From: a plasmid
Sequence record: NZ_CP085772.1
DNA: 51,836 bases
Reading direction: 5' to 3' (one strand)
Shown: piece by piece, positions 814 through 12,721 of the stretch
Numbering within the stretch: the stretch's first letter is position 1
Layout of the letters: each line of letters opens with the position of its first letter
Notes under the pieces: model-generated
Database searches by the model: none
What the model saw: only the letters and a program-made list of their open reading frames with translations
Told to the model about the DNA's origin: nothing
Program-made: the position numbers and the translations under genes

Positions 814-1787
814 TGTCGAATGAGAAAAGAAAAACCATCGGCAGACAGTTAAATACCCAGGCGTCAATTGCGGAAATGACGGACACCGGTAGAAGCCAGG
901 TATTTACCTTAAAAACCGGCAGGAAGGTAACGTTCAGGTTTGTTCGGGTGCCTGCATCTGAAGTTGAAAGTAAGACCTTCGTAAACCAGGAAAACAACGG
1001 AAGAGATCAACTGGCACTGACCAGGGAGTCCCTGAAATCCATTATCCAGACGATTAAGTTTCAGCAGTTCTTTCCCTGTATTGGTATTAAGCAAAGTGAA
1101 AGGATTGAGATACTGGATGGTTCAAGACGGCGAGCCTCAGCAATTTTTGTCCGTTCAGGCCTTGATGTAATGGTTACCGAAGAGCATTTATCAGCTGATG
1201 AAGCTCGCCAACTGGCTAAAGATATCCAGACAGCTAAAGAACATAATCTTCGGGAGATTGGCCTGAGATTGATCGCTCTTAAAGAGTCCGGATTTAATCA
1301 AAAGGAAATTGCTGAACTGGAGGGGTTATCTCAAGCTAAAGTTACCAGGGCGCTGCAGGCGGCGGCCGTACCGCAAGACTTGATTTCTCTGTTCCCGGTT
1401 CAGTCGGAGCTATCGTTTAGTGACTATAAACTTCTTTTAGAAGTTAATGAAAAACTCAGTGAAAAGGGATTAACGCCTGAAGAACTCATTCAGTCTGTAT
1501 CAGCTCAGCTCGATGCAATTTTGAGTGAAGGCGAGCGACCAGAAGACGAACAGAAAGCCAGTATACTGAAGCTGATTTCTCAGGCATCTCAGGCATTGAT
1601 AGATCCATCTCCCAAGGAAAAGTCAGTGGTTTCCCCACTCTGGTCTTTTGAAGAAAAGGACAAGTTCGCGCGTAAGCGTGTGAAAGGGCGTACGCTGACT
1701 TATGAGTTTAGCCGTATGTCAAAAGTGATTCAGGATGAACTGGACAAGGCTATCAACGAGGTCCTTGACAGAAATTTGAGTCAATAA
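810..1787 (+). CDS. sopB: ParB/SopB-family centromere-binding partition protein
   Basis: 325 aa. ParB-like sequence, translationally coupled to sopA. Confidence 0.8.
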   Translation: MMSNEKRKTIGRQLNTQASIAEMTDTGRSQVFTLKTGRKVTFRFVRVPASEVESKTFVNQENNGRDQLALTRESLKSIIQTIKFQQFFPCIGIKQSERIEILDGSRRRASAIFVRSGLDVMVTEEHLSADEARQLAKDIQTAKEHNLREIGLRLIALKESGFNQKEIAELEGLSQAKVTRALQAAAVPQDLISLFPVQSELSFSDYKLLLEVNEKLSEKGLTPEELIQSVSAQLDAILSEGERPEDEQKASILKLISQASQALIDPSPKEKSVVSPLWSFEEKDKFARKRVKGRTLTYEFSRMSKVIQDELDKAINEVLDRNLSQ

Positions 1788-1796
1788 TTTCGCCAT

Positions 1797-1863
1797 GGCG
1801 ATTTCACATCTAACTTATTGTAATTAGGCAGTTTAGGCTGAGAATTTCAAGGTGAAATCGCCA
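1797..1863. repeat. Inverted repeat (12-bp arms tggcgatttcac / gtgaaatcgcca) downstream of sopB; no 43-bp sopC-type array present
   Basis: Perfect 12-bp arms about 43 bp apart, read directly. Confidence 0.4.
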
Positions 1864-1868
1864 AAGTT

Positions 1869-3140
1869 TTACGCCAGTTTCGCTGCAGGAATATCTGACC
1901 ATCGTGTCGTATAAGCAGGAGAAAGCATCTCCCGTTTCATTTGCCATTCCGGGGCAATACCCCGCCCCGCAAACCATACTTTACCCAGCCCTGAGTTGTT
2001 GATCCCGTCCAGAACCCTCATCAGCTCAGCACTGTGAGGGCGTGGCGGGCGTTCGTCGAACAGCTGCAGCTGCGAAACGCCGGAGCCGGTGAAGTCATTC
2101 AGCATAACTCCGGCTTTGGCATACCGGTGTCCATCCCTCCAGATACGCTCCAGAGCCGTTGTGGCGGCTGCAATGATGTCCCTGGTGTCCTGAGTGGGTG
2201 TAAGAAGTTTTTCCGTAGCCACGTTGCCGTAGTAAGGTTCTTTAACGGCGAACGGAGACGTTTTGATGAAAACGGAAATATGCCGGCAATACTGGTGCTC
2301 TTTACGCAGCTTTTCAGAGGCCCGCTCTGCGTGCTGACAGATAGCCTGACGGAGTGACTCGTACTCCGTGATCTTCACGCCAAAACTGCGGCTGCAGACA
2401 ATTTGCTGTTTCGTCGGAGGGGCTTCCTCAAGCGAAAGGCAGCTTTCCCCGTTCAGTTCACGTACCGTTCGCTCAAGGACCACAGAAAAATTTTTGCGGA
2501 TGAAGGCCGGGTTCGTCAGGGCGAGATCGAGCGCGGTCTTAATGCCCAGCACATTCAGCTTGCGTGCAATACGGTTACCCACCCCCCAGATTTCTTTAAC
2601 CGGCTGCAGTGAAAGCAGTTTCCGCGTTCTCTGCGGATTTCCCCTGGTCAGAGCAAGTACGCCACGAAGCTGTTTCCACTCTTTTGAGGCCCACTGGGCT
2701 GATTTTGCAAGGGTCTTCGTTGGTCCGGCGCCCACGCCAATGGTCAGGTGGGTACAGTCATACACGTGCTGACGCAGCTGCCGGCCGAAGTCCTCAAGCT
2801 CCATACAGTGCTCCACGCCGGTCAAATCGAGGAACATCTCATCAATTGAATACTGTTCCACTCTGGGGGCCAGTTCCTCCAGGCAGTTCATCACGCGCGC
2901 CGACATCGAGGCGTAAAGTTCATAGTTACTTGAAAACGAATATATTTTTTCCGGGTACCTTTCGTTTTTTATCTGAAACCACGGAGTTCCCATTTTGATC
3001 CAGGGCTTCGCCTCGGCACTGCGAGCGATTACGTTCCCGTCGTTGTTGCTCAGGACGACTATCGGCTTTCCTTTCAAATCCGGTCGGAAAACACGTTCAC
3101 AGCTGGCATAGAAGCTGTTCACATCGGCCAGGGCAAACAT
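1869..3140 (-). CDS. umuC: Error-prone DNA polymerase V subunit UmuC (Y-family polymerase)
   Basis: 423 aa. N-terminus [15 protein letters not shown] is diagnostic of UmuC/MucB. Confidence 0.9.
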
Positions 3141-3571
3141 CAGTACATCTCCCTCGGGCGGTGGATGATATGCGTGACGACGCCAAAGATATCAAGCTCG
3201 TCGGGGTCAGGATAAATCGGCGACCAGGAGGCATTCATGGGCTGCAGCGTCAGTCGAGGCGTCAGCAGAAGCCGTTTAACCGTAAACTCCCCCTGTACGC
3301 TGGCGACAACGATATCGCCGTGCCGCGGCTTTTCAGCACTGTCCACAACCAGCAGATCGCCATTGTACAGACTACCGTCCGCCATGCTGTCTCCGCTGGC
3401 ACGCAGGTAGTACGTCGCGCTCGGATGCCGTATGCAGTAATCATGGAGATCCAGATCGGACTCGACATAGTCAGCGGCAGGGCTGGGAAAACCGCAGCTG
3501 GCCAGATCGGCAAACAATGGATGGGCCTGTGGCGGGTGTTCTTTCCCGGTGCTGAAAAGCTGTAGCTTCAT
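3140..3571 (-). CDS. umuD: UmuD (LexA-like self-cleaving SOS protein)
   Basis: Start MKLQLF preceded by AGGAGG. Contains the S24 peptidase fold (GDSM..K). Overlaps umuC by 1 nt. The longer six-frame ORF (to 3952) is an artefactual upstream extension. Confidence 0.85.
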
Positions 3572-3596
3572 CTTTCCTCCTGACACTCTAATTTTA

Positions 3597-3612
3597 CTGG
3601 TTATGTATACAG
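3597..3612. promoter_or_regulatory. LexA (SOS) box-like palindrome CTGGTTATGTATACAG upstream of umuD
   Basis: CTG-N10-CAG palindrome. Other strand reads CTGTATACATAACCAG, one mismatch from CTGT-N8-ACAG. Lies ~25 bp upstream of the umuD ATG. Confidence 0.55.
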
Positions 3613-3613
3613 T

Positions 3614-5560
3614 GTGCGCCGGGAGACCGGTAGAGATCAAGGGGTGAAAGTCCCCGACCATTGAAGGACCAGCAATCCACAAGGTCCCCGAGTCATGCGT
3701 TGCATACCGCGAGGTATGGGGCGAAGCGTTGACAGGGGTGTTGACAGGCCAGCCATTGAGCCACGAAATGTATATTAAATTACCGGGTGCCGACGTTGTA
3801 CTGTTAACGGAAGGCAACATCATAGGGTGCGATACTGCGAGTGCCACATGGACCCGGCGGGGTCTGAGACCCTGGCATGTCAATACGATCTCTACGCGGG
3901 AACCGGGAGATCTCCCCTCTGACCATCTGCCAGTGTCGGAGATGGCCCGCACCGGGAAGACGAGGAGTCATAGCCGGTGATGTACGGAGAGGAGAAGTCG
4001 GACTCGCTCATAGTAGCGGCGAAGCAGGCGAACAACCCGAAAGGAGCGGAGTCAGTGGAGCGAAGGAGCGGGGCCAAGGGGAACGCGGAACAGCCACACA
4101 TGCGCCGGACACAGAGCCGGGAAAGCATGTCACAGAGGCTGTCACGCGTGCGGGAAGCTGCGAAGCAGCGGAAGAAAGAACGGTTTACAGCATTGTTCCA
4201 CCTGCTGACAGTCGAAGCACTGGAAGCCGCATTCCTCTCCCTGAGCAGGAAAGCGGCCGCCGGAGTGGATGGCATCAGGTGGATGGACTACGCCGGAAAC
4301 ATGAAGAACAACATAACAGATCTGCACCGGAGGCTACATCAGGGCAGCTACAGGGCGCAGCCCGGCAGGCGTCACTACATCCCAAAAGCGGATGGAAAAC
4401 AACGCCCGCTCGGCATCGCCTCGCTGGAGGACAAGATCGTCCAGTATGCGCTGGTGAAAATCCTGAACGCAGTCTATGAAAACGACTTTATGGGGTTCTC
4501 ATACGGGTTCAGACCCGGGCGAAGCCAGCACGATGCACTGGACGCACTGGCCACAGGGCTGGTACGCACTAACGTAAACTGGGTACTGGATGCCGACATC
4601 AGTCAGTTCTTTGACAGGGTGAGCCACGAATGGCTGATCAGGTTCACAGAGCATCGGATCGGCGACCGGAGGGTAATCAGGCTCATACGTAAGTGGCTCA
4701 CAGCCGGGACGTCGGAGGAGGGTCAATGGCGAGCAACGGAGGAAGGCACCCCACAGGGTGCGGTCATCTCACCGCTGCTGGCAAACATATACCTCCACTA
4801 CGTCTTCGATCTGTGGGCGCATCAGTGGCGACGTCGCTATGCCACAGGCAATGTGGTAATGGTCAGATACGCCGATGACATCGTCATCGGGTTCGACAAA
4901 CGATACGATGCCCGGCGCTTCCGTATAGCCATGCAGCGCAGACTGAGGGAGTTCGGACTCACGGTTCACCCGGAGAAAACCCGTCTGATGGAGTTCGGCC
5001 GCTTCGCTGCCGAAAACCGTGCCATCAGGGGAAAAGGCAAACCAGAAACGTTCAACTTCCTCGGGTTCACGCACATCAGCGGGAAAGATCGCAACGGCAG
5101 GTTCATGCTGATACGAAAGACCCGCCGGGATCGGATGACGGCAACTCTGAAAGCCATCAAAGACGGTCTGCGAAGGCGCTGGCATTACTCAATCCCCGAA
5201 CAGGGAAAATGGCTCAGGAGAGTGGTTCAGGGATACCTGAACTATCACTCGGTACCGGGCAACTTCCCCACCATGCAGAAGTTCAGGACACACGTAACAA
5301 ACCTCTGGCGCCGGGCGCTCAGGCGCAGGAGCCAGAAGGATGATACGACCTGGACGAAAGCAAACAAACTGGCAGCCGCATGGCTACCAAGGGTTCGGGT
5401 TCTTCATCCATGGCCTGTGGAGCGGTTCACCGCCAGACACCCGAGGCAGGAGCCCGGTGCGTAAATCGCGCACGCCGGGATCTGTGCGGGGGGTATCCGG
5501 TAACGGGTATCCCTACCGCGACATATTTAACAGCGTGACGATAATCCAGATCGCCTGCCG
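3614..5560 (+). mobile_element. Bacterial group II intron (retroelement), complete or nearly complete; 3' boundary approximate
   Basis: Starts GTGCG (or GTGTG at 3612). The 5' ribozyme domains span about 360 nt. The RT/maturase ORF lies in domain IV. About 96 nt remain after the ORF stop for domains V-VI before IS1 begins. Confidence 0.75.
3977..5464 (+). CDS. ltrA: Group II intron-encoded reverse transcriptase/maturase (no recognisable C-terminal HNH endonuclease domain)
   Basis: RT motifs present, including YADD (VMVRYADDIVIGF) and the X/maturase region. 495 aa. Confidence 0.9.
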   Translation: MMYGEEKSDSLIVAAKQANNPKGAESVERRSGAKGNAEQPHMRRTQSRESMSQRLSRVREAAKQRKKERFTALFHLLTVEALEAAFLSLSRKAAAGVDGIRWMDYAGNMKNNITDLHRRLHQGSYRAQPGRRHYIPKADGKQRPLGIASLEDKIVQYALVKILNAVYENDFMGFSYGFRPGRSQHDALDALATGLVRTNVNWVLDADISQFFDRVSHEWLIRFTEHRIGDRRVIRLIRKWLTAGTSEEGQWRATEEGTPQGAVISPLLANIYLHYVFDLWAHQWRRRYATGNVVMVRYADDIVIGFDKRYDARRFRIAMQRRLREFGLTVHPEKTRLMEFGRFAAENRAIRGKGKPETFNFLGFTHISGKDRNGRFMLIRKTRRDRMTATLKAIKDGLRRRWHYSIPEQGKWLRRVVQGYLNYHSVPGNFPTMQKFRTHVTNLWRRALRRRSQKDDTTWTKANKLAAAWLPRVRVLHPWPVERFTARHPRQEPGA

Positions 5561-5747
5561 GGTAATGGTGCCAACTTACTGATTTAGTGTACGATGGTGT
5601 TTTTGAGGTGCTCCCGTGGCTTCCATCTCCATCAGTTGTCCCTCCTGCTCAGCTACTGAAGGCGTGGTGCGTAACGGTAAAAGTACTGCCGGACATCAGC
5701 GCTATCTCTGCTCTCACTGCCGTAAAACATGGCAGCTACAGTTCACT
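5561..5747 (+). mobile_element. IS1 fragment (IRL plus insA 5' end), truncated by IS903B insertion
   Basis: ggtaatggtgccaacttactgatttagtgtacgatggtg... matches the IS1 left end and the start of insA. Homology stops at the IS903 IR. Confidence 0.8.
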
Positions 5748-5756
5748 GGTAATGGG

Positions 5757-6812
5757 GCTTTGTTGAATAAATCAGATTTCGGGTAAGTCTCCCCCGTAGC
5801 GGGTTGTGTTTTCAGGCAATACGCACGCTTTCAGGCATACCTGCTTTCGTCATTTTGTTCAGCGCTCGTACCAGGGCCATAGCCTCCGCAACCTGACCAT
5901 CGTAGTCACGCAGCGTCAGTGAACCCCCGAACAGCTGTTTTACCCGGTACATCGCCGTTTCCGCTATCGAGCGACGGTTGTAATCTGTTGTCCATTTCCA
6001 CCGCGCATTACTCCCGGTCAGCCGCTGATTAGCCACTGCACGGTTACGGTCTGCATATTCACCGGGCCAGTAACCCGCACCTTTTCGGGGTGGGCTAAGC
6101 GCGCTGATTTTCTTACGCCGCAGTTCATCGTGACAGAGCCGGGTGTCGTAAGCGCCGTCTGCCGATGCTGCCCTGATTTTTCTGTGAGTCTGCCGGATAA
6201 GACCCGGGAAGGCTTCTGAGTCCGTCACATTGTTCAGCGACAGGTCTGCACAGATGATTTCATGTGTTTTGCTGTCAACTGCCAGATGCAACTTTCGCCA
6301 TATACGACGGCGTTCCTGGCCATGCTTTTTGACTTTCCACTCGCCTTCACCGAAGACCTTCAGCCCGGTGGAATCAATCACCAGATGCGCGATTTCACCC
6401 CGGGTGAACGTTTTGAAACTGACATTAACCGACTTTGCGCGCCTGCTGACACTGGTGTAATCCGGGCAGCGCAACGGAACATTCATCAGTGTAAAAATGG
6501 AATCAATAAAGCCCTGCGCAGCGCGCAGGGTCAGCCTGAACACGCGTTTAATGACCAGAACGGTGGTGATGGCGAGATCAGAATAGCGCTGAGGTCTTCC
6601 CCGTGATGAAGGCGTTGCCGACTCATACCAGGCCTGAATAGCTTCATCATCCAGCCAGAAAGTTATGGAGCCACGGTTGATGAGGGCTTTATTGTAGGTG
6701 GGCCAGTTGGTGATTTTGAACTTTTGCTTTGCCACGGAATGGTCTGTGTTGTCGGGAGGATGCGTGATCTGATCCTTCAACTCAGCAAAAGTTCGATTTA
6801 TTCAACAAAGCC
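5757..6812 (-). mobile_element. IS903B (IS5 family) copy 1
   Basis: 18-bp terminal IRs GGCTTTGTTGAATAAATC at both ends. Length about 1056 bp. Confidence 0.9.
5812..6780 (-). CDS. tnpA: IS903B transposase
   Basis: 322 aa, N-terminus MKDQITHPPDNTDHSVAKQKF, DDE motif present. Confidence 0.9.
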   Translation of the reverse strand: MKDQITHPPDNTDHSVAKQKFKITNWPTYNKALINRGSITFWLDDEAIQAWYESATPSSRGRPQRYSDLAITTVLVIKRVFRLTLRAAQGFIDSIFTLMNVPLRCPDYTSVSRRAKSVNVSFKTFTRGEIAHLVIDSTGLKVFGEGEWKVKKHGQERRRIWRKLHLAVDSKTHEIICADLSLNNVTDSEAFPGLIRQTHRKIRAASADGAYDTRLCHDELRRKKISALSPPRKGAGYWPGEYADRNRAVANQRLTGSNARWKWTTDYNRRSIAETAMYRVKQLFGGSLTLRDYDGQVAEAMALVRALNKMTKAGMPESVRIA

Positions 6813-6841
6813 CATTAGATCTGCTTTTGCCAAAAAAACGG

Positions 6842-7279
6842 CTAGTTTTTTCTGGGTTTACCCAAACCAAAGGCACCGGCATTCACTATAAACGAGGCCT
6901 TTCTGATCGGCGTATCGATATCAAATATGGGGTTTTCAGCACGCCTTCTTTCAAAGTACTTATTTCTCTCCGATTCATTTTTAAAAGCGCTACCTGTCCT
7001 TGCAATCCTCTCCTGAATAAGCATCTTTTCATGCTCAGCCTTTTTGGTTGAGTTGGCCTTAGCGAGATTCTTTTCAAGGGATTTCGTATGCTTTTTTATA
7101 TGCTTTCTCAACCTAGCTTTATGGCCAAATGAGAGTTTACATATCGGACAAGTGAATAATTCTTCCATAAGCTTCATGAGTGTAAGGGGAAGGTTATATT
7201 TACCATAGCATTCCTTGTCCGAACTGCCATGCGATGGTCCACCGGGGCAATGAGGCAAAGCCGTTGTCTGTGGAAGCAC
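6842..7279 (-). CDS. Small basic protein with a canonical C2H2 zinc-finger motif (F-x-C-x2-C-x3-F-x5-L-x2-H-x3-H); start codon uncertain
   Basis: FTCPICKLSFGHKARLRKHIKKH followed by a K/R/E-rich tail. A near-identical copy lies at 15128..15604. Confidence 0.5.
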   Translation of the reverse strand: MLPQTTALPHCPGGPSHGSSDKECYGKYNLPLTLMKLMEELFTCPICKLSFGHKARLRKHIKKHTKSLEKNLAKANSTKKAEHEKMLIQERIARTGSAFKNESERNKYFERRRAENPIFDIDTPIRKASFIVNAGAFGLGKPRKN

Positions 7280-7349
7280 TACGCGGCATGATGAGCGTCG
7301 TCAGTTGCACACCGGCAAAGACGTGAAACACTTTTAACCGGAGCCAGTC

Positions 7350-7628
7350 ATGCGCGTTGCCGAAAGCATCATCCTCGATGCCCTCACTCGCGGAGGATGC
7401 ATCAAAACCTTTTACCGCATATCCTCACGGCAGGCTGCTGAATCGGCCACGCGGATACCTGAGGGGTATATTCTGGAGTCGCCCGGCGAGCGGGAAGATA
7501 TTGTGCTCAGCCATGCGGACTTTCATGCACTGGAGAAGCAGCTGGAGCAGAAGGAAACCTGGGAGCAGGTGGTCGGTGTGACCTGTTTTGGTGGGGCAAC
7601 CTGGCAGCTGAGAGCCGGGTCCGTGTGA
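7350..7628 (+). CDS. Hypothetical 92-aa protein (duplicated at 15636..15917)
   Basis: ORF with start MRVAESII. Conserved in both copies of the module. Confidence 0.4.
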   Translation: MRVAESIILDALTRGGCIKTFYRISSRQAAESATRIPEGYILESPGEREDIVLSHADFHALEKQLEQKETWEQVVGVTCFGGATWQLRAGSV

Positions 7629-7890
7629 TGAGTGGCTGAGGTGCCGAAATAATTCTTTTATTTCAGCAGTGGCATTTCTGCAGTCCACGACTACAGTCTT
7701 CTCACCGGATGCATTGTGACTGTCCCACACTCCGGGGATTTGCTCCCTTTGACGAACCACAATTGTGTCCGGCCAGCCTTTCACGCTGGCTTTTTTTCGC
7801 ACAACTCTGTTCAGACTGAGTCTGAATGGTCATCTCCCTGCCCTGCCCGTTTACGCTGATGGCCAGACAGGGAGCGCCAGGAAAGAATGG

Positions 7891-8844
7891 TTAGTGGCGG
7901 ATCTGCGCCAGGTCGTCTTCCGTCAGGCCGGTCATTTTCATAACGGTATTGCGGTCAATGCCGTTATGCAGCATGGTACGGGCAATTTTCAGAGTGGCCT
8001 GACGCTCACCTTCTGAACGGCCCTTTTCAATACCCCGTTGTTCACCGAGCTGGATGCCCTGCTCAATCCCCTTCTGGATACCCTTCTGCTCAAGCTGTTG
8101 TGCGATGGTCATGAGTGCGTCTCCGTGTTGCGGCACACGCTGTGCCAGTTCGCGTACAAAGGCTTCGGCGTCAGCTGTCTCGCCTGCCTGGAGTATATAG
8201 TGTACCAGCGATATGACCTGGGATGAAGACAGATAGCCGGCCAGCAAAATGGGCGCCAGCCGGTCAACCAGTTCAGCGAGGTCGCGCTGGTGAATATGTT
8301 TCTGCAGTAAGGTCAGAGCGGCCATACTGCGGTGGCCGGCGATGTCATCATCCGGAATAACGGTCACATCAACCAGCGGGAAAGCGCCGCTGTAGAGTGT
8401 GCCTGCCAGCGCCGGGTCGTCAAACTCATCCAGCCAGCGGGTGGAATACGGATACGGGCTGCGTTTACCGGTATAGAACAGGACCGGTATCACCAGGGGC
8501 AGCTTCTTATGGCCCGCTTCCAGATGGCGCTGCATGGCGGCTACCGCGTAACGTATCAGGCGAAACGCCATGTGCCTGTCAGGCGACGACTGGTGCTCAA
8601 TGAGCACGTGAACGTAGCCGTCACCACCGGTGGTTTTCAGGCTGTAGAGGACGTCGCTGAAATACTGGCGGAGGTCATCCTCAACGAACGAGCCGGATTC
8701 CAGTTTCAGCGTGCTGAGGTCGCAGATGGCCTGCAGCTCAGCGGGCAAATGCAACTTCATAAAATCCCGGGCAATATCCGGCTGCGTCAGGAACTGCCTG
8801 AACGTGGCATCGTGGGGTGTGGGGGTGCTGTTTTTCTTCATCAT
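7891..8844 (-). CDS. rpn: Rpn-family recombination-promoting nuclease (YhgA-like PD-(D/E)XK transposase_31)
   Basis: Start MMKKNSTPTPHDATFRQFL. C-terminal IQKGIEQGIQLGEQRGIEKG repeat typical of the RpnA-E family. Confidence 0.75.
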   Translation of the reverse strand: MMKKNSTPTPHDATFRQFLTQPDIARDFMKLHLPAELQAICDLSTLKLESGSFVEDDLRQYFSDVLYSLKTTGGDGYVHVLIEHQSSPDRHMAFRLIRYAVAAMQRHLEAGHKKLPLVIPVLFYTGKRSPYPYSTRWLDEFDDPALAGTLYSGAFPLVDVTVIPDDDIAGHRSMAALTLLQKHIHQRDLAELVDRLAPILLAGYLSSSQVISLVHYILQAGETADAEAFVRELAQRVPQHGDALMTIAQQLEQKGIQKGIEQGIQLGEQRGIEKGRSEGERQATLKIARTMLHNGIDRNTVMKMTGLTEDDLAQIRH

Positions 8845-9013
8845 CAGCCCTGGCTCTGAAAAATGACCCGGGTATGCTATCACAGGCAGGAGCAGCACAT
8901 AATGGCCAGTCAGATGATGATGTATTTCTTTCCCGTAAGGCCGCTCAGTCTATATTCTTGCATATCAATCATTCAGGATGCCGGACAACTCACGTTTGCG
9001 AACAGAGAGATCG

Positions 9014-9634
9014 TTATTTGTTAGCGCTGGAGCAGACCCGAATTACTGTCATTTTAGAAACGCCCGCCAGGCGAGCTGTTTCTCGCAGCGATTTTCCATT
9101 GACCAGGCGCAGAGTGCGTATCAGTTCATGTTTCTGCGCATCGGCCACCCTGCCCCGGTATTTTCCTTCAGCTTTCGCCTTACTGATACCCTCTGACTGT
9201 CGACGTCGACGGTCTTCGTAATCTTTTCGGGCAATAGCGGCCAGCATATCCAGCATCATGCCATTTACGGCCTTCAGCATGCTTCGGGTAAAGTCATCAC
9301 TTACTGTGCTGGATAGCGCCAGATGGCTGGTCGGTAGATCAAGACTGACGATGGCCAGCTGCTTGTCTGTAATTTGCTTTCTGAGTGTCTCCCAGCCTGC
9401 ATCATCCAGGCGAGTGAGCCTGTCGACCTGTTCAATGAGAATCACATCACCAGGTTCCGCATCACCAAGAAGCCTGATCAGTTCAGGAAGATTCATTGTC
9501 GTACCGGAGACATTATCGATATACCAGCCAGCAATACGGTGTCCATGTTGGTTTGCAAACGCCTTCAGTGCATTTTTTGCCCGGCTGGCATCCTGTTCTG
9601 AAGTGGATGCCCGGAGGTAACCAAAAACGAACAT
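9014..9634 (-). CDS. Serine recombinase (resolvase/invertase family)
   Basis: MFVFGYLRASTSEQ catalytic-Ser N-terminus. C-terminal HTH. Confidence 0.8.
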   Translation of the reverse strand: MFVFGYLRASTSEQDASRAKNALKAFANQHGHRIAGWYIDNVSGTTMNLPELIRLLGDAEPGDVILIEQVDRLTRLDDAGWETLRKQITDKQLAIVSLDLPTSHLALSSTVSDDFTRSMLKAVNGMMLDMLAAIARKDYEDRRRRQSEGISKAKAEGKYRGRVADAQKHELIRTLRLVNGKSLRETARLAGVSKMTVIRVCSSANK

Positions 9635-9635
9635 T

Positions 9636-9740
9636 TTTTGTCCTAGTGGTAACATTTAAGTGGTACTGTTCATTATGGTATCACTTAAGTGGTAACAATA
9701 AAACTACCCGATACCTCTTGAGGTGGTACATATGAACTAT
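9636..9740. promoter_or_regulatory. Putative res site: four copies of AGTGGTA / TTAAGTGGTA motif upstream of the resolvase gene
   Basis: agtggtaaca, ttaagtggtac, ttaagtggtaac and gaggtggtaca lie within about 100 bp. Confidence 0.4.
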
Positions 9741-9780
9741 ACCCTAATGTGACATATTGGCGAGTGGTCTAGGATTGGTT

Positions 9781-9805
9781 AATAAAAAAGCCAGGGAATC
9801 CTGGC
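9781..9805 (-). terminator. Rho-independent terminator (gccagg-gaat-cctggc + T-run on minus strand)
   Basis: Perfect 6-bp stem followed by TTTTTTATT in the minus-strand transcript. Confidence 0.5.
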
Positions 9806-9823
9806 TCTTGGGTGAGCTGGTTG

Positions 9824-9901
9824 TTAGAAGAACCAGCGAATTAACTCTAAAAGCACAATGAGCGCTTTCAGAGCCTGGATGACTTTTGTAAGAGTCTCCA
9901 T
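9824..9901 (-). CDS. Candidate type I toxin, DinQ-like 25-aa hydrophobic peptide METLTKVIQALKALIVLLELIRWFF
   Basis: Strong RBS AAGGAGAG 6 nt upstream of ATG. Terminator immediately downstream. The ALIxLLELIR core resembles E. coli DinQ. Confidence 0.4.
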   Translation of the reverse strand: METLTKVIQALKALIVLLELIRWFF

Positions 9902-10166
9902 TTTCTCTCCTTTTCTGGAGAGTAGAACACCGAATGAACCCTTCCACTCTGTCATTCGGTTTTTAATCTTTAATGTCAGTTAAAGATAGTTCCACTCAGG
10001 TAATGGTACTGACTCAGCACCACCTGTTAGTCAGCCAGAGTCTAATCAATGTGTTAGCTGGCTCTTGTAAATCAGATTGATCAGAGTAAAGAGTGGGGGG
10101 TATCATTCAACCGTCAGTTAAAGATAGTTCCATTCCAGATCTGAGTACCAGCTTAGTTTTGGATGT

Positions 10167-10197
10167 AAAAAAGCCCGATCACCAGTCGGGCTTTTTT
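10167..10197. terminator. Bidirectional intrinsic terminator hairpin (A-run, gcccga...tcgggc, T-run)
   Basis: aaaaaagcccgatcaccagtcgggctttttt. Confidence 0.45.
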
Positions 10198-10250
10198 ACA
10201 TCTAAACCCGCTTGAAGCCTTTGACCTGCCCCCACGATTAGATACAACAC

Positions 10251-11084
10251 TCAGTTAGTAACGTCGGAATCTTCATTCTCAGAATGACCCTTTCTCCAGC
10301 CCGCTGCAAATTCAGACGGTGTCTGATAATTCAGCGTGGAGTGCGGGCGGCATTCGTTATAATCCTGCCGCCAGTCATTAATAATTTTCCTGGCATGAAC
10401 GATATCGCTGAACCAGTGCTCATTCAAACATTCATCGCGAAATCGTCCGTTAAAGCTCTCAATAAATCCGTTCTGCGTTGGCTTGCCCGGCTGGATTAAG
10501 CGCAACTCAACACCATGCTCAAAGGCCCATTGATCCAGTGCACGGCAAGTGAACTCCGGCCCCTGGTCAGTTCTTATCGTCGCCGGATAGCCTCGAAACA
10601 GTGCAATGCTGTCCAGAATACGCGTGACCTGAACGCCTGAAATCCCAAAGGCAACAGTGACCGTCAGGCATTCCTTTGTGAAATCATCGACGCAGGTAAG
10701 ACACTTGATCCTGCGACCGGTGGAAAGTGCGTCCATGACGAAATCCATCGACCAGGTCAGATTGGGCGCCGCCGGACGGAGCAGCGGCAGACGTTCTGTT
10801 GCCAGCCCTTTACGACGTCTTCTGCGTTTTACGCCCAGGCCACTGAGGTGATAAAGCCGGTACACGCGCTTATGATTAACATGAAGCCCTTCACGGCGCA
10901 GCAACTGCCAAATACGACGGTAGCCAAAACGCCTGCGCTCCAGTGCCAGCTCAGTGATGCGCCCTGATAAATGCGCATCAGCAGCCGGACGGTGAGCCTC
11001 ATAGCGGCAGGTCGACAGGGATAAACCTGTAAGCCTGCAGGCACGACGTTGCGACAGACCGGTCGCATCACACATCAACATCAC
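10251..11084 (-). CDS. IS3-family transposase OrfB (DDE integrase core), expressed by -1 frameshift with OrfA
   Basis: 277 aa, rve-type core with DDE motif. Confidence 0.85.
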
Positions 11085-11107
11085 GGCTTCCCGCTTCTGG
11101 TCTGTCG

Positions 11108-11371
11108 TCAGTACTTTCGCCCAAGAGCCACCTGAAGCGCCTCTTTATCCAGCATGGCTTCGGCAAGCAGCTTCTTGAGTCTGGTGTTCTCTTCCTCAAG
11201 CGACTTCAGGCGCTTAACTTCAGGCACCTCCATACCGCCATACTTCTTACGCCAGGTGTAAAACGTGGCATCGGAAATGGCATGCTTGCGGCAGAGTTCA
11301 CGGGCGGGTACCCCAGCTTCGGCTTCGCGGAGAATACTGATGATCTGTTCGTCGGAAAAACGCTTCTTCAT
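11108..11371 (-). CDS. IS3-family transposase OrfA (HTH)
   Basis: 87 aa, [20 protein letters not shown]... leucine-zipper tail. Confidence 0.85.
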
Positions 11372-11665
11372 GGGGATGTCCTCATGTGGCTTATGAAGAC
11401 ATTACTAACATCGGGGTGTACTAATCAACGGGGAGCAGGTCACCTTATCATCCGCTGCCTTGACCCCAATTATGGGTTAATTTATTACTGTAACGCATTC
11501 CTAATAATCGCGATTTTATTGATCTAGAACAAAGTAAAAATGTCAGAGTACAAGTGAAGGGCGCTTGCGCTAAATGTAAATTTATACGATTAAAAAAAGA
11601 TCATTTTTACTACTAACAATTATTCTTGTTCTTAGTCATTCATCTGAAAGGTAATGCTTCCAAAT

Positions 11666-12721
11666 GGCTTTGTTGAATAAATCGAACTTTTGCTGAGTTG
11701 AAGGATCAGATCACGCATCCTCCCGACAACACAGACCATTCCGTGGCAAAGCAAAAGTTCAGAATCACCAACTGGTCCACCTACAACAAAGCTCTCATCA
11801 ACCGTGGCTCCCTCACTTTCTGGCTGGATGATGGGGCGATTCAGGCCTGGTATGAGTCGGGAACGCCTTCATCACGAGGAAGGCCCCAGCGCTATTCTGA
11901 TCTCGCCATCACCACCGTTCTGGTGATTAAACGCGTATTCCGGCTGACCCTGCGGGCTGCGCAGGGTTTTATTGATTCCATTTTTGCCCTGATGAACGTT
12001 CCGTTGCGCTGCCCGGATTACACCAGTGTCAGTAAGCGGGCAAAGTCGGTTAATGTCAGTTTCAAAACGTCCACCCGGGGTGAAATCGCACACCTGGTGA
12101 TTGATTCCACCGGGCTGAAGGTCTTTGGTGAAGGCGAATGGAAAGTCAGAAAGCACGGCAAAGAGCGCCGTCGTATCTGGCGAAAGTTGCATCTTGCTGT
12201 TGACAGCAACACACATGAAGTTGTCTGTGCAGACCTGTCGCTGAATAACGTCACGGACTCAGAAGCCTTCCCGGGCCTTATCCGGCAGACTCACAGAAAA
12301 ATCAGGGCAGCCGCGGCAGACGGGGCTTACGACACCCGGCTCTGTCACGATGAACTGCGGCGTAAGAAAATCAGCGCGCTTATCCCGCCCCGAAAAGGTG
12401 CAGGTTACTGGCCCGGTGAATATGCAGACCGTAACCGTGCAGTGGCTAATCAGCGAATGACCGGGAGTAATGCGCGGTGGAAATGGACAACGGAATATAA
12501 CCGTCGCTCGATAGCGGAAACGGCAATGTACAGAATGAAGCAGTTGTTGGGAGATTCACTGACGCTGCGTGACTACGATGGTCAGGTAGCGGAAGCTATG
12601 GCCCTGGTACGAGCGCTGAACAAAATGACGAAAGCAGGTATGCCTGAAAGCGTGCGTATTGCCTGAAAATCCAGCCAGCTACAGGGTCGTTCGCACGAAA
12701 TCTTATTTATTCAACAAAGCC
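11666..12721 (+). mobile_element. IS903B copy 2 (inverted relative to copy 1)
   Basis: IRs GGCTTTGTTGAATAAATC / gatttattcaacaaagcc-like. 1056 bp. Confidence 0.9.
11698..12666 (+). CDS. tnpA: IS903B transposase
   Basis: 322 aa, about 95% identical to the copy-1 transposase. Confidence 0.9.
   Translation: MKDQITHPPDNTDHSVAKQKFRITNWSTYNKALINRGSLTFWLDDGAIQAWYESGTPSSRGRPQRYSDLAITTVLVIKRVFRLTLRAAQGFIDSIFALMNVPLRCPDYTSVSKRAKSVNVSFKTSTRGEIAHLVIDSTGLKVFGEGEWKVRKHGKERRRIWRKLHLAVDSNTHEVVCADLSLNNVTDSEAFPGLIRQTHRKIRAAAADGAYDTRLCHDELRRKKISALIPPRKGAGYWPGEYADRNRAVANQRMTGSNARWKWTTEYNRRSIAETAMYRMKQLLGDSLTLRDYDGQVAEAMALVRALNKMTKAGMPESVRIA

Follow-up and report, generated by a model that had tools for sequence, protein, structure and literature searches.

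The group II intron S.ma.I1 at a plasmid umuDC operon: evidence for probable homing into LexA operators

INTRODUCTION

Class IIC and IIC-attC introns such as B.h.I1 and S.ma.I2, which have no endonuclease domain, insert at terminators and attC sites, recurrent non-coding palindromic motifs at which damage to the host is avoided. They recognise a DNA stem-loop together with a very short intron-binding site 1 (IBS1), and do so without an exon-binding site 2 (EBS2). Ll.LtrB and EcI5, which carry an endonuclease domain, read 12–14 nt of the 5′ exon by EBS2/EBS1 pairing, insert precisely without target duplication and are directed to one allele of one gene. Here we analyse a copy of the group II intron S.ma.I1 that lies beside the umuDC operon of a plasmid, within a stretch of 51,836 nt (sequence record NZ_CP085772.1; hereafter the window). 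Comparison with an intron-free allele and with occupied sites elsewhere leads us to propose that an intact copy of S.ma.I1 retrohomed into the LexA operator of umuDC by EBS–IBS pairing, a reading to which we give a probability of roughly 0.8.

S.ma.I1 shares with the class IIC introns the missing endonuclease domain and a recurrent, non-coding palindromic target where the host is spared, but it differs from them in inserting inside the palindrome, in having an EBS1 of 5–6 nt and probably an EBS2 of 8 nt, and in its published IIB label. The likeness to Ll.LtrB and EcI5 lies in the mode of pairing, in precise insertion without duplication and possibly in a distal 5′ exon read by the intron protein; in contrast to their single-gene targets, the site of S.ma.I1 is a transcription-factor operator that recurs throughout a regulon. 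A further parallel comes from mobile elements controlled by LexA, namely integron integrases, SXT-type elements, lambdoid and 186-type prophages and colicin plasmids, in that sense copies of the intron are predicted to be damage-inducible as well. Those elements carry LexA boxes of their own, whereas S.ma.I1 would gain such control by inserting into the operators of others.

The intron was reportedly first seen in the promoter region of a mucAB-like operon on plasmid R471a, in work that Kulaeva et al. are said to have published in Mutat Res in 1998. It has since been annotated in Klebsiella, Enterobacter and Raoultella plasmids and, with a reported length of 1910 nt, in the genome of K. pneumoniae ATCC BAA-2146 (PMC4147364); the name S.ma.I1 is also used in PMC4048246. 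The supplement of Hudson et al. 2014 describes eight copies with a 'preference for promoters', and its File S1 places five of the eight 7 bp past predicted transcription starts and before ribosome-binding sites; neither 'LexA' nor 'SOS' occurs as a word in that supplement. The searchable open literature, subscription literature being outside its scope, yielded no paper tying group II intron targets to SOS or LexA boxes. The element analysed here is the same as in the published copies, and the LexA operator as its preferred site is absent from the papers searched.

RESULTS

The intron lies inside the umuDC LexA operator

The element on the umuD side is a group II intron of 1909 nt that occupies positions 3614–5522 of the window on the + strand and runs from GTGCG to CCGCGAC. 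In an intron-free plasmid allele (NZ_CP155710.1, locus L002), tactggttatgcatacagt is followed directly by atatttaacag and then continues to parM, the two exons being joined exactly, so that both junctions are fixed to the base. No target duplication is seen relative to this empty allele, and the termini, GTGCG at 3614 and ...GAC at 5522, fit the GUGYG and AY ends of group II introns. An earlier description of this DNA (the sequence-only reading) had allowed the 5′ end to be either GTGCG at 3614 or GTGTG at 3612; the empty site bears out the former and rules out the latter. It had also proposed that the intron touches the umuDC LexA operator. This holds to the base: the insertion point falls between box positions 19 and 20.

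As a reference for LexA boxes, we used the gammaproteobacterial SOS box TACTG(TA)5CAGTA with its CTG-N10-CAG core. A scan of the window for CTG-N10-CAG with at most seven mismatches to this consensus returned a sole LexA-like box in 51.8 kb, the 20-bp sequence TACTGGTTATGTATACAGTG at 3595–3614. Its core, CTGGTTATGTATACAG, spans 3597–3612, and T3613 is the only base between the core and the intron, whose first G takes the place of box position 20. The empty allele has the full 20-mer ending in ...CAGTA (TACTGGTTATGTATACAGTA, compared with ...CAGTG once occupied), and the mismatches to the consensus number three before insertion and four after it. By its sequence, the palindrome was rightly described as LexA-like. 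The retained 19 of 20 bp (TACTGGTTATGTATACAGT, 3595–3613), defined by the box scan, the empty allele and the 60 flanks described below, form the 5′ exon of the intron and would contain both IBS2 and IBS1. On the other side, the 3′ exon (5523–5560, + strand) consists of 38 bp of native umuD–parM intergenic DNA, the first base of which is box position 20 (A). In L002 this stretch directly adjoins the box, and in L001 it runs on to parM.

The element is a full-length copy of S.ma.I1

The Rfam model RF02005 (group-II-D1D4-6) matches at 3647–3872 on the + strand over its full length (model positions 1–225; 186.6 bits against a gathering score of 49, E = 9e-55), which places the core of ribozyme domains I–IV. 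An open reading frame at 3980–5464 (+) encodes a reverse transcriptase/maturase of 494 amino acids, which matches RVT_1 (E = 4.6e-47) and the NCBIfam group II reverse transcriptase/maturase model TIGR04416 (376 bits, cut-off 300 bits). Domain profile searches detected no HNH or other endonuclease domain in this protein, as the sequence-only reading had stated. In a sequence search of the PDB, the closest solved structures are group II intron reverse transcriptases, although class IIC, IIB and IIA enzymes score alike and do not discriminate the class. The ribozyme portion outside the reading frame is small, about 420 nt. Since Rfam RF00029, the domain V/VI model, gave no match even at E ≤ 1, these domains were read from a fold of 5450–5519 (+; −44 kcal/mol, z = −2.8), which contains a domain V-like hairpin of 34 nt at about 5450–5483, bulged by 2 nt, and at 5486–5519 a putative domain VI hairpin in which A5515, 7 nt before the 3′ end, is bulged. 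Relatives keep these features as well as the 3′ end, CTACCGCGA(C/T).

With the copy in p602815-CTXM (NZ_MZ753460.1), which its authors list as S.ma.I1 (PMC11783820), the window intron shares 99.7% identity, and the copies in plasmids, chromosomes and prophages are 99.7–100% identical to that in the window. By this criterion, which uses a near-identical published copy and not the database reference sequence, the intron is a full-length copy of the named element S.ma.I1, the Serratia marcescens intron of the group II intron database. Two other copies at the plasmid umuD site (L005, 2496–4404; L014, 2635–4543) begin with GTTCACC in place of GTGCGCC, and the reverse transcriptase gene of L005 is annotated with an internal stop; both look like decaying copies that are probably immobile.

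The same operator position is occupied at unrelated SOS loci

A protein-based scan of species genomes (L006–L084) gave at least 10 distinct sites, and a further 66 loci (L085–L150) came from viral and prophage contigs scanned in addition. Sixty distinct 30-nt 5′ flanks from plasmids, chromosomes and prophages were aligned at the insertion point. Their consensus is TACTGTATATA(A/T)A(A/T)ACAGT with A on the far side of the insertion, that is, the LexA consensus. Counting back from the insertion point, CAG at −4 to −2 is present in 60/60 flanks and CTG at −17 to −15 in 58/60, the two exceptions being L018 (gtg) and L109 (atg), while T−19 occurs in 55 and A−18 in 56. Information is high from −19 to −1 only, with a collapse at −20. 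At +1, 32 of 33 flanks have A, and a G is tolerated at one natural site (L004/L131). Considering that the same box position recurs in 60 distinct flanks, the adjacency of intron and operator is more than chance. An incidental insertion near a palindrome, as the sequence-only reading had implied, does not describe these sites, at all of which the LexA box appears to be the homing site.

S.ma.I1 and its 93% sister were always found at this box position, at many unrelated loci. The genes that follow at about 20 nt are of classical SOS types and encode UmuD homologues (plasmid, chromosomal and prophage), GyrI (SbmC)-like and DinI-like proteins, cloacin/colicin, a 146-amino-acid DinI/Tum-like protein (phrog_189) and a 79-amino-acid prophage family of unknown function (phrog_3893). 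In about two-thirds of the distinct 3′ flanks, a gene that is oriented like the intron begins after no more than 50 nt, and copies occur in both orientations relative to the gene. The chromosomal umuDC operator of E. coli, an experimentally defined LexA operator, is occupied in 13 of 5426 complete genomes, and NZ_CM151386.1 is a record with this insertion: TACTGTATATAAAAACAGT is followed by a 99.8% identical intron copy, in the sense orientation to umuD, inserted before the A. Judged by these flanks, the LexA operator is the normal landing site of S.ma.I1 wherever it is found, and the proposed operator homing by the S.ma.I1 clade is well supported by the comparative evidence.

A betaproteobacterial relative with 69% protein identity is inserted after position 20 of LexA-type boxes (L025–L027), at one of these sites upstream of a gene for an integrase N-terminal domain. 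Relatives at 64% identity or less use unrelated, non-LexA targets. One of them, at 64%, has the target TTACGGTGACA immediately 5′ of the intron and the EBS1 UGUCAC, and was found in at least eight copies in metagenome-assembled genomes of Alphaproteobacteria (L036–L042, L067, L076); a single alphaproteobacterial genome uses TTACGGTGACA at no fewer than seven sites. This is another multi-copy, motif-specific homing pattern.

Two side observations concern individual copies. In L098, a second LexA-type box, TACTGTATGCATGAACAGTG, lies directly 3′ of the intron and upstream of a UmuD homologue, so that there are two operators in tandem and the intron has entered the first. Introns with 100% identity to that in the window were also found on short contigs (L006, L007, L009/L022, L011, L012, L013, L023 and L024) in assemblies labelled Streptomyces, Actinomadura, Microbacterium, Kitasatospora, Pedobacter, Flammeovirga, Arthrobacter and Eggerthellaceae. 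Their flanks are enterobacterial (dinI-like, sbmC-like, colicin), and they are almost certainly contaminant contigs.

The occupied plasmid junction, counted with a junction-specific probe, is present in at least 1726 plasmid records of PLSDB, mostly from Klebsiella and Enterobacter, and the uninterrupted site, counted with a chimeric 'intron-free' query, in 1055 plasmid records. A first count of 4105 records at '≥80% coverage' was dropped because the intron alone could satisfy it. Since the element is known and the plasmid allele common, the observation at this single locus is an ordinary one.

Intron RNA segments complementary to the operator

In every lineage examined (at least 10), a hairpin loop at intron positions 180–190 is complementary to the last 5–8 nt of the 5′ exon, and the loop changes with the target. 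This covariation identifies ACUGUU at 3800–3805 (+) as EBS1, predicted to pair with (A)ACAGU at −6/−5 to −1. The EBS1/IBS1 pair is thus ACUGUU/AACAGU in S.ma.I1. In the 69% relative it is UACUGUG/CACAGUA, which accounts for the one-base shift of its insertion, and in other relatives it is GUUUCC/GGAGAC, CUGUUG/CAACAG, UGUCAC/GUGACA, CUGACC/GGUCAG, UAAGCG/CGCUUA or UCAUCC/GGAUGA. A second segment, AUGUAUAU, in an internal loop at 3768–3775 (+), is a probable EBS2, whose likely partner is the (TA)n spacer around −13 to −6. With the L018 site, AUGUAUAU can form eight Watson–Crick pairs at −13 to −6; the homologous segment of L028, GAGAUGUC, can pair over 8 bp with GACAUCUU at −14 to −7.

Several observations weigh against homing by EBS–IBS pairing as we propose it. 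The putative EBS2 pairs with the window box over 7 bp that include two G–U pairs and with the E. coli box over only five contiguous pairs, and in AT-rich boxes its register is ambiguous and the pairing imperfect. No RNA pairing that would explain conservation of the left half-site (−19 to −14) was found in the intron. Since many of the flanks come from prophage loci that are homologous, there were fewer than 60 independent homing events. To these may be added the silence of the domain V/VI model mentioned above and the result of consensus scans for promoters: no recognisable promoter for umuD or for the intron was found in the window, and no sigma-70 promoter was found on either strand of the occupied or the empty allele. 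The comparison with intron-free plasmids that the sequence-only reading had suggested gave back the ancestral site and no promoter with it.

The conserved left half-site is also the starting point of the alternative that survives best. Here, the intron protein, or LexA bound to the operator, would read TACTG (−19 to −15) and the RNA only the right part, so that the whole operator is recognised. The intron protein reads the distal 5′ exon in other group II introns, for example Ll.LtrB. The near-invariance of −19 to −14, the collapse of information at −20 and the failure of any complementary intron segment to stand out at a conserved position for the left half all fit this explanation. However, the same conservation is expected if TATATA-A-ACAGT sequences exist in genomes essentially only as selected LexA boxes, and L018 and L109 are occupied without CTG, L018 having the best match to EBS2. 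A motif scan of 1.12 Mb, a small sample searched with a loose motif, returned 9 unoccupied non-LexA matches to the right part and 17 with CTG; these 17 were for the most part occupied boxes seen on their other strand. Such counts do not separate reading by RNA alone from recognition of the whole box. We regard guidance by protein or LexA as an unlikely substitute for EBS–IBS pairing. For the left half-site itself two readings remain: either it is read by the intron protein or LexA, or functional LexA boxes are the only form in which genomes contain such sequences.

Structural recognition in the style of class IIC, in which the operator would form a hairpin in single-stranded DNA and the intron insert beside it, is considerably less probable still. 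The sequence-only reading had likened the intron to such structure-directed introns, and the lack of an endonuclease domain, the small ribozyme portion and the palindromic target are in keeping with this. Nevertheless, the insertion falls inside the operator palindrome and not after a terminator, and IBS1 is the palindrome's own right arm, which cannot pair with both EBS1 and the left arm; this argues against hairpin recognition as practised by class IIC introns. A candidate EBS2 that matches over 8 bp exists, relatives use the same EBS1 loop on non-palindromic targets, and S.ma.I1 has been labelled group IIB (PMC5517477). Finally, a single ancestral accident near the umuDC operator, spread with the plasmid backbone, would fit the many plasmid records with nearly identical flanks but has next to no probability, being already contradicted by non-homologous loci at which the intron occupies the identical position of the box (umuDC on the chromosome, sbmC-like, dinI-like and colicin genes, and several genes of prophages), in both gene orientations.

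A route into the operator and signs of repeated insertion

In the homing by EBS–IBS pairing that we favour, EBS1 would pair with the right half-site (A)ACAGU and EBS2 with the (TA)n spacer. The right two-thirds of the operator, about 13 nt, would thus be read by the intron RNA, with reverse splicing behind CAGT. By analogy with other endonuclease-less introns, cDNA synthesis would presumably be primed from a replication-fork strand. The choice of strand may be set by the two half-sites: the + strand offers ACAGT and the umuD-sense strand CCAGT, which would make insertion antisense to umuD, the orientation seen in the window, the likely outcome.

Head-to-tail tandem copies with a spacing of exactly 1909 nt were found in L099 (four copies, 6088–11860) and L129 (two copies, 1103–3057). 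At their junctions ...CCGCGAC is followed directly by GTGCGCC..., and a single LexA box precedes each array. Such arrays would be expected if the intron had homed again into the 19-nt operator that each insertion retains, with an assembly artefact as a possible alternative. Together, the many identical copies at distinct sites and the tandem arrays lend indirect support to the predicted splicing and retromobility.

Two copies have mixed flanks. In L008 (2635–4543) the 5′ exon is that of plasmid umuD and the 3′ exon is unrelated to it; in L128 a 5′ exon of prophage type is combined with the umuD–parM 3′ exon of the plasmid. Such flanks suggest that copies of the intron residing at different SOS loci have undergone homologous recombination. 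Recombination between intron copies was likewise inferred from PacBio reads (Hudson et al. 2014).

Consequences for the umuDC operon

Both genes of the operon are intact and are transcribed away from the intron, on the − strand. umuD (3140–3571, 143 amino acids) has a Peptidase_S24 domain and is annotated as umuD in homologous plasmids; the umuC-like gene (1869–3140, 423 amino acids) encodes a Y-family polymerase with IMS, IMS_C, IMS_HHH and DUF4113 domains. The umuD start codon lies 24 nt from the LexA box. Since the CTG-N10-CAG core and these 24 bp beside umuD are kept, LexA binding at the occupied box has probably been retained. On the other side of the box, as the sequence-only reading had recognised, all DNA upstream in the direction of umuD is now intron; a −35 or UP element, if there was one, now lies 1.9 kb further off. 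In the umuD sense, box position 1 changes from T to C. Given this change and the replaced upstream DNA, the strength of the umuDC promoter has probably been altered. Constitutive read-through from the intron, which had also been considered, would require transcription antisense to the intron, because the intron is antisense to umuD. Expression of umuDC may be weakened, silenced or still under LexA control.

Insertion sequences on the 3′ side

The 3′ exon is followed by a truncated IS1 (5561–5747, + strand), of which only the left end, the first 187 bp, is present; it aligns up to 5747 with the annotated IS1X3 of pLS45-3 (L005), where it occupies the same junction. Next comes an IS903-like element of the IS5 family (5756–6812, − strand, 1057 bp) with a transposase gene at 5812–6780 (NF033579, 344.7 bits) and terminal repeats at 5756 and 6795–6812. 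The sequence-only reading had IS1 arriving first and then being hit by IS903B; both elements are there, but the order of events is not established. No 9-bp target duplication surrounds the IS903-like element at 5756–6812 (tggtaatgg versus cattagatc), so that a simple insertion of IS903 into IS1 is not demonstrated. A second IS903-like copy, inverted relative to the first, starts at 11666, and the two bracket about 4.8 kb with genes for an Rpn-family nuclease and a serine recombinase and an IS3 element. This suggests a rearrangement (inversion or deletion between the IS903-like copies) and not a simple nested insertion. An Rfam IS1222 frameshift element (11024–11141, − strand, 156.6 bits) lies inside the IS3-family transposase gene (10251–11084, − strand).

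DISCUSSION

Both S.ma.I1 and the plasmid allele were known before; what would be new is homing to the LexA operator. Most copies are in the sense orientation to an SOS gene, about 20 nt before the start codon, between what would be the LexA-controlled promoter/operator and the ribosome-binding site. Since such copies lie downstream of a promoter under LexA control, their transcription is expected to be LexA-repressed and damage-induced; sense copies should thus be controlled by LexA and transcribed only upon LexA cleavage.

These considerations raise a broader possibility, which we put forward tentatively and at somewhat worse than even odds: that S.ma.I1-type introns are parasites of the SOS regulon. 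They would reverse-splice just downstream of the −10 element and thereby gain LexA control, so that DNA damage, including that caused by quinolones, triggers both their expression and their homing into further SOS operators of chromosomes, plasmids and prophages, re-tuning umuDC, tum, colicin release and intI. The whole 20-bp box would be recognised, its left half through the intron protein or LexA. If true, this would be the first retroelement known to home to a transcription-factor operator, and recombination between SOS loci would find 1.9-kb stretches of homology in its copies.

A possible independent hint of SOS-linked intron expression comes from biofilms of Marinobacter atlanticus, where four reverse transcriptases of group II introns are up-regulated along with a gene set that includes SOS genes (PMC8233155).

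Homing to LexA operators would add a new niche strategy to those of bacterial retroelements, beside terminators, attC sites and insertion sequences. The natural empty and occupied alleles, the known 20-bp target and the tandem re-insertions make this a tractable system. If the proposal is correct, expression and spread of a retroelement would be tied to the antibiotic-inducible DNA-damage response, with the intron placed in the regulatory DNA of umuDC (mutagenesis) and of genes for prophage induction, colicins and possibly integron recombination, and with identical copies serving as recombination substrates between SOS loci. The hosts concerned, plasmids and prophages of Klebsiella, Enterobacter and E. 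coli, are clinically important.

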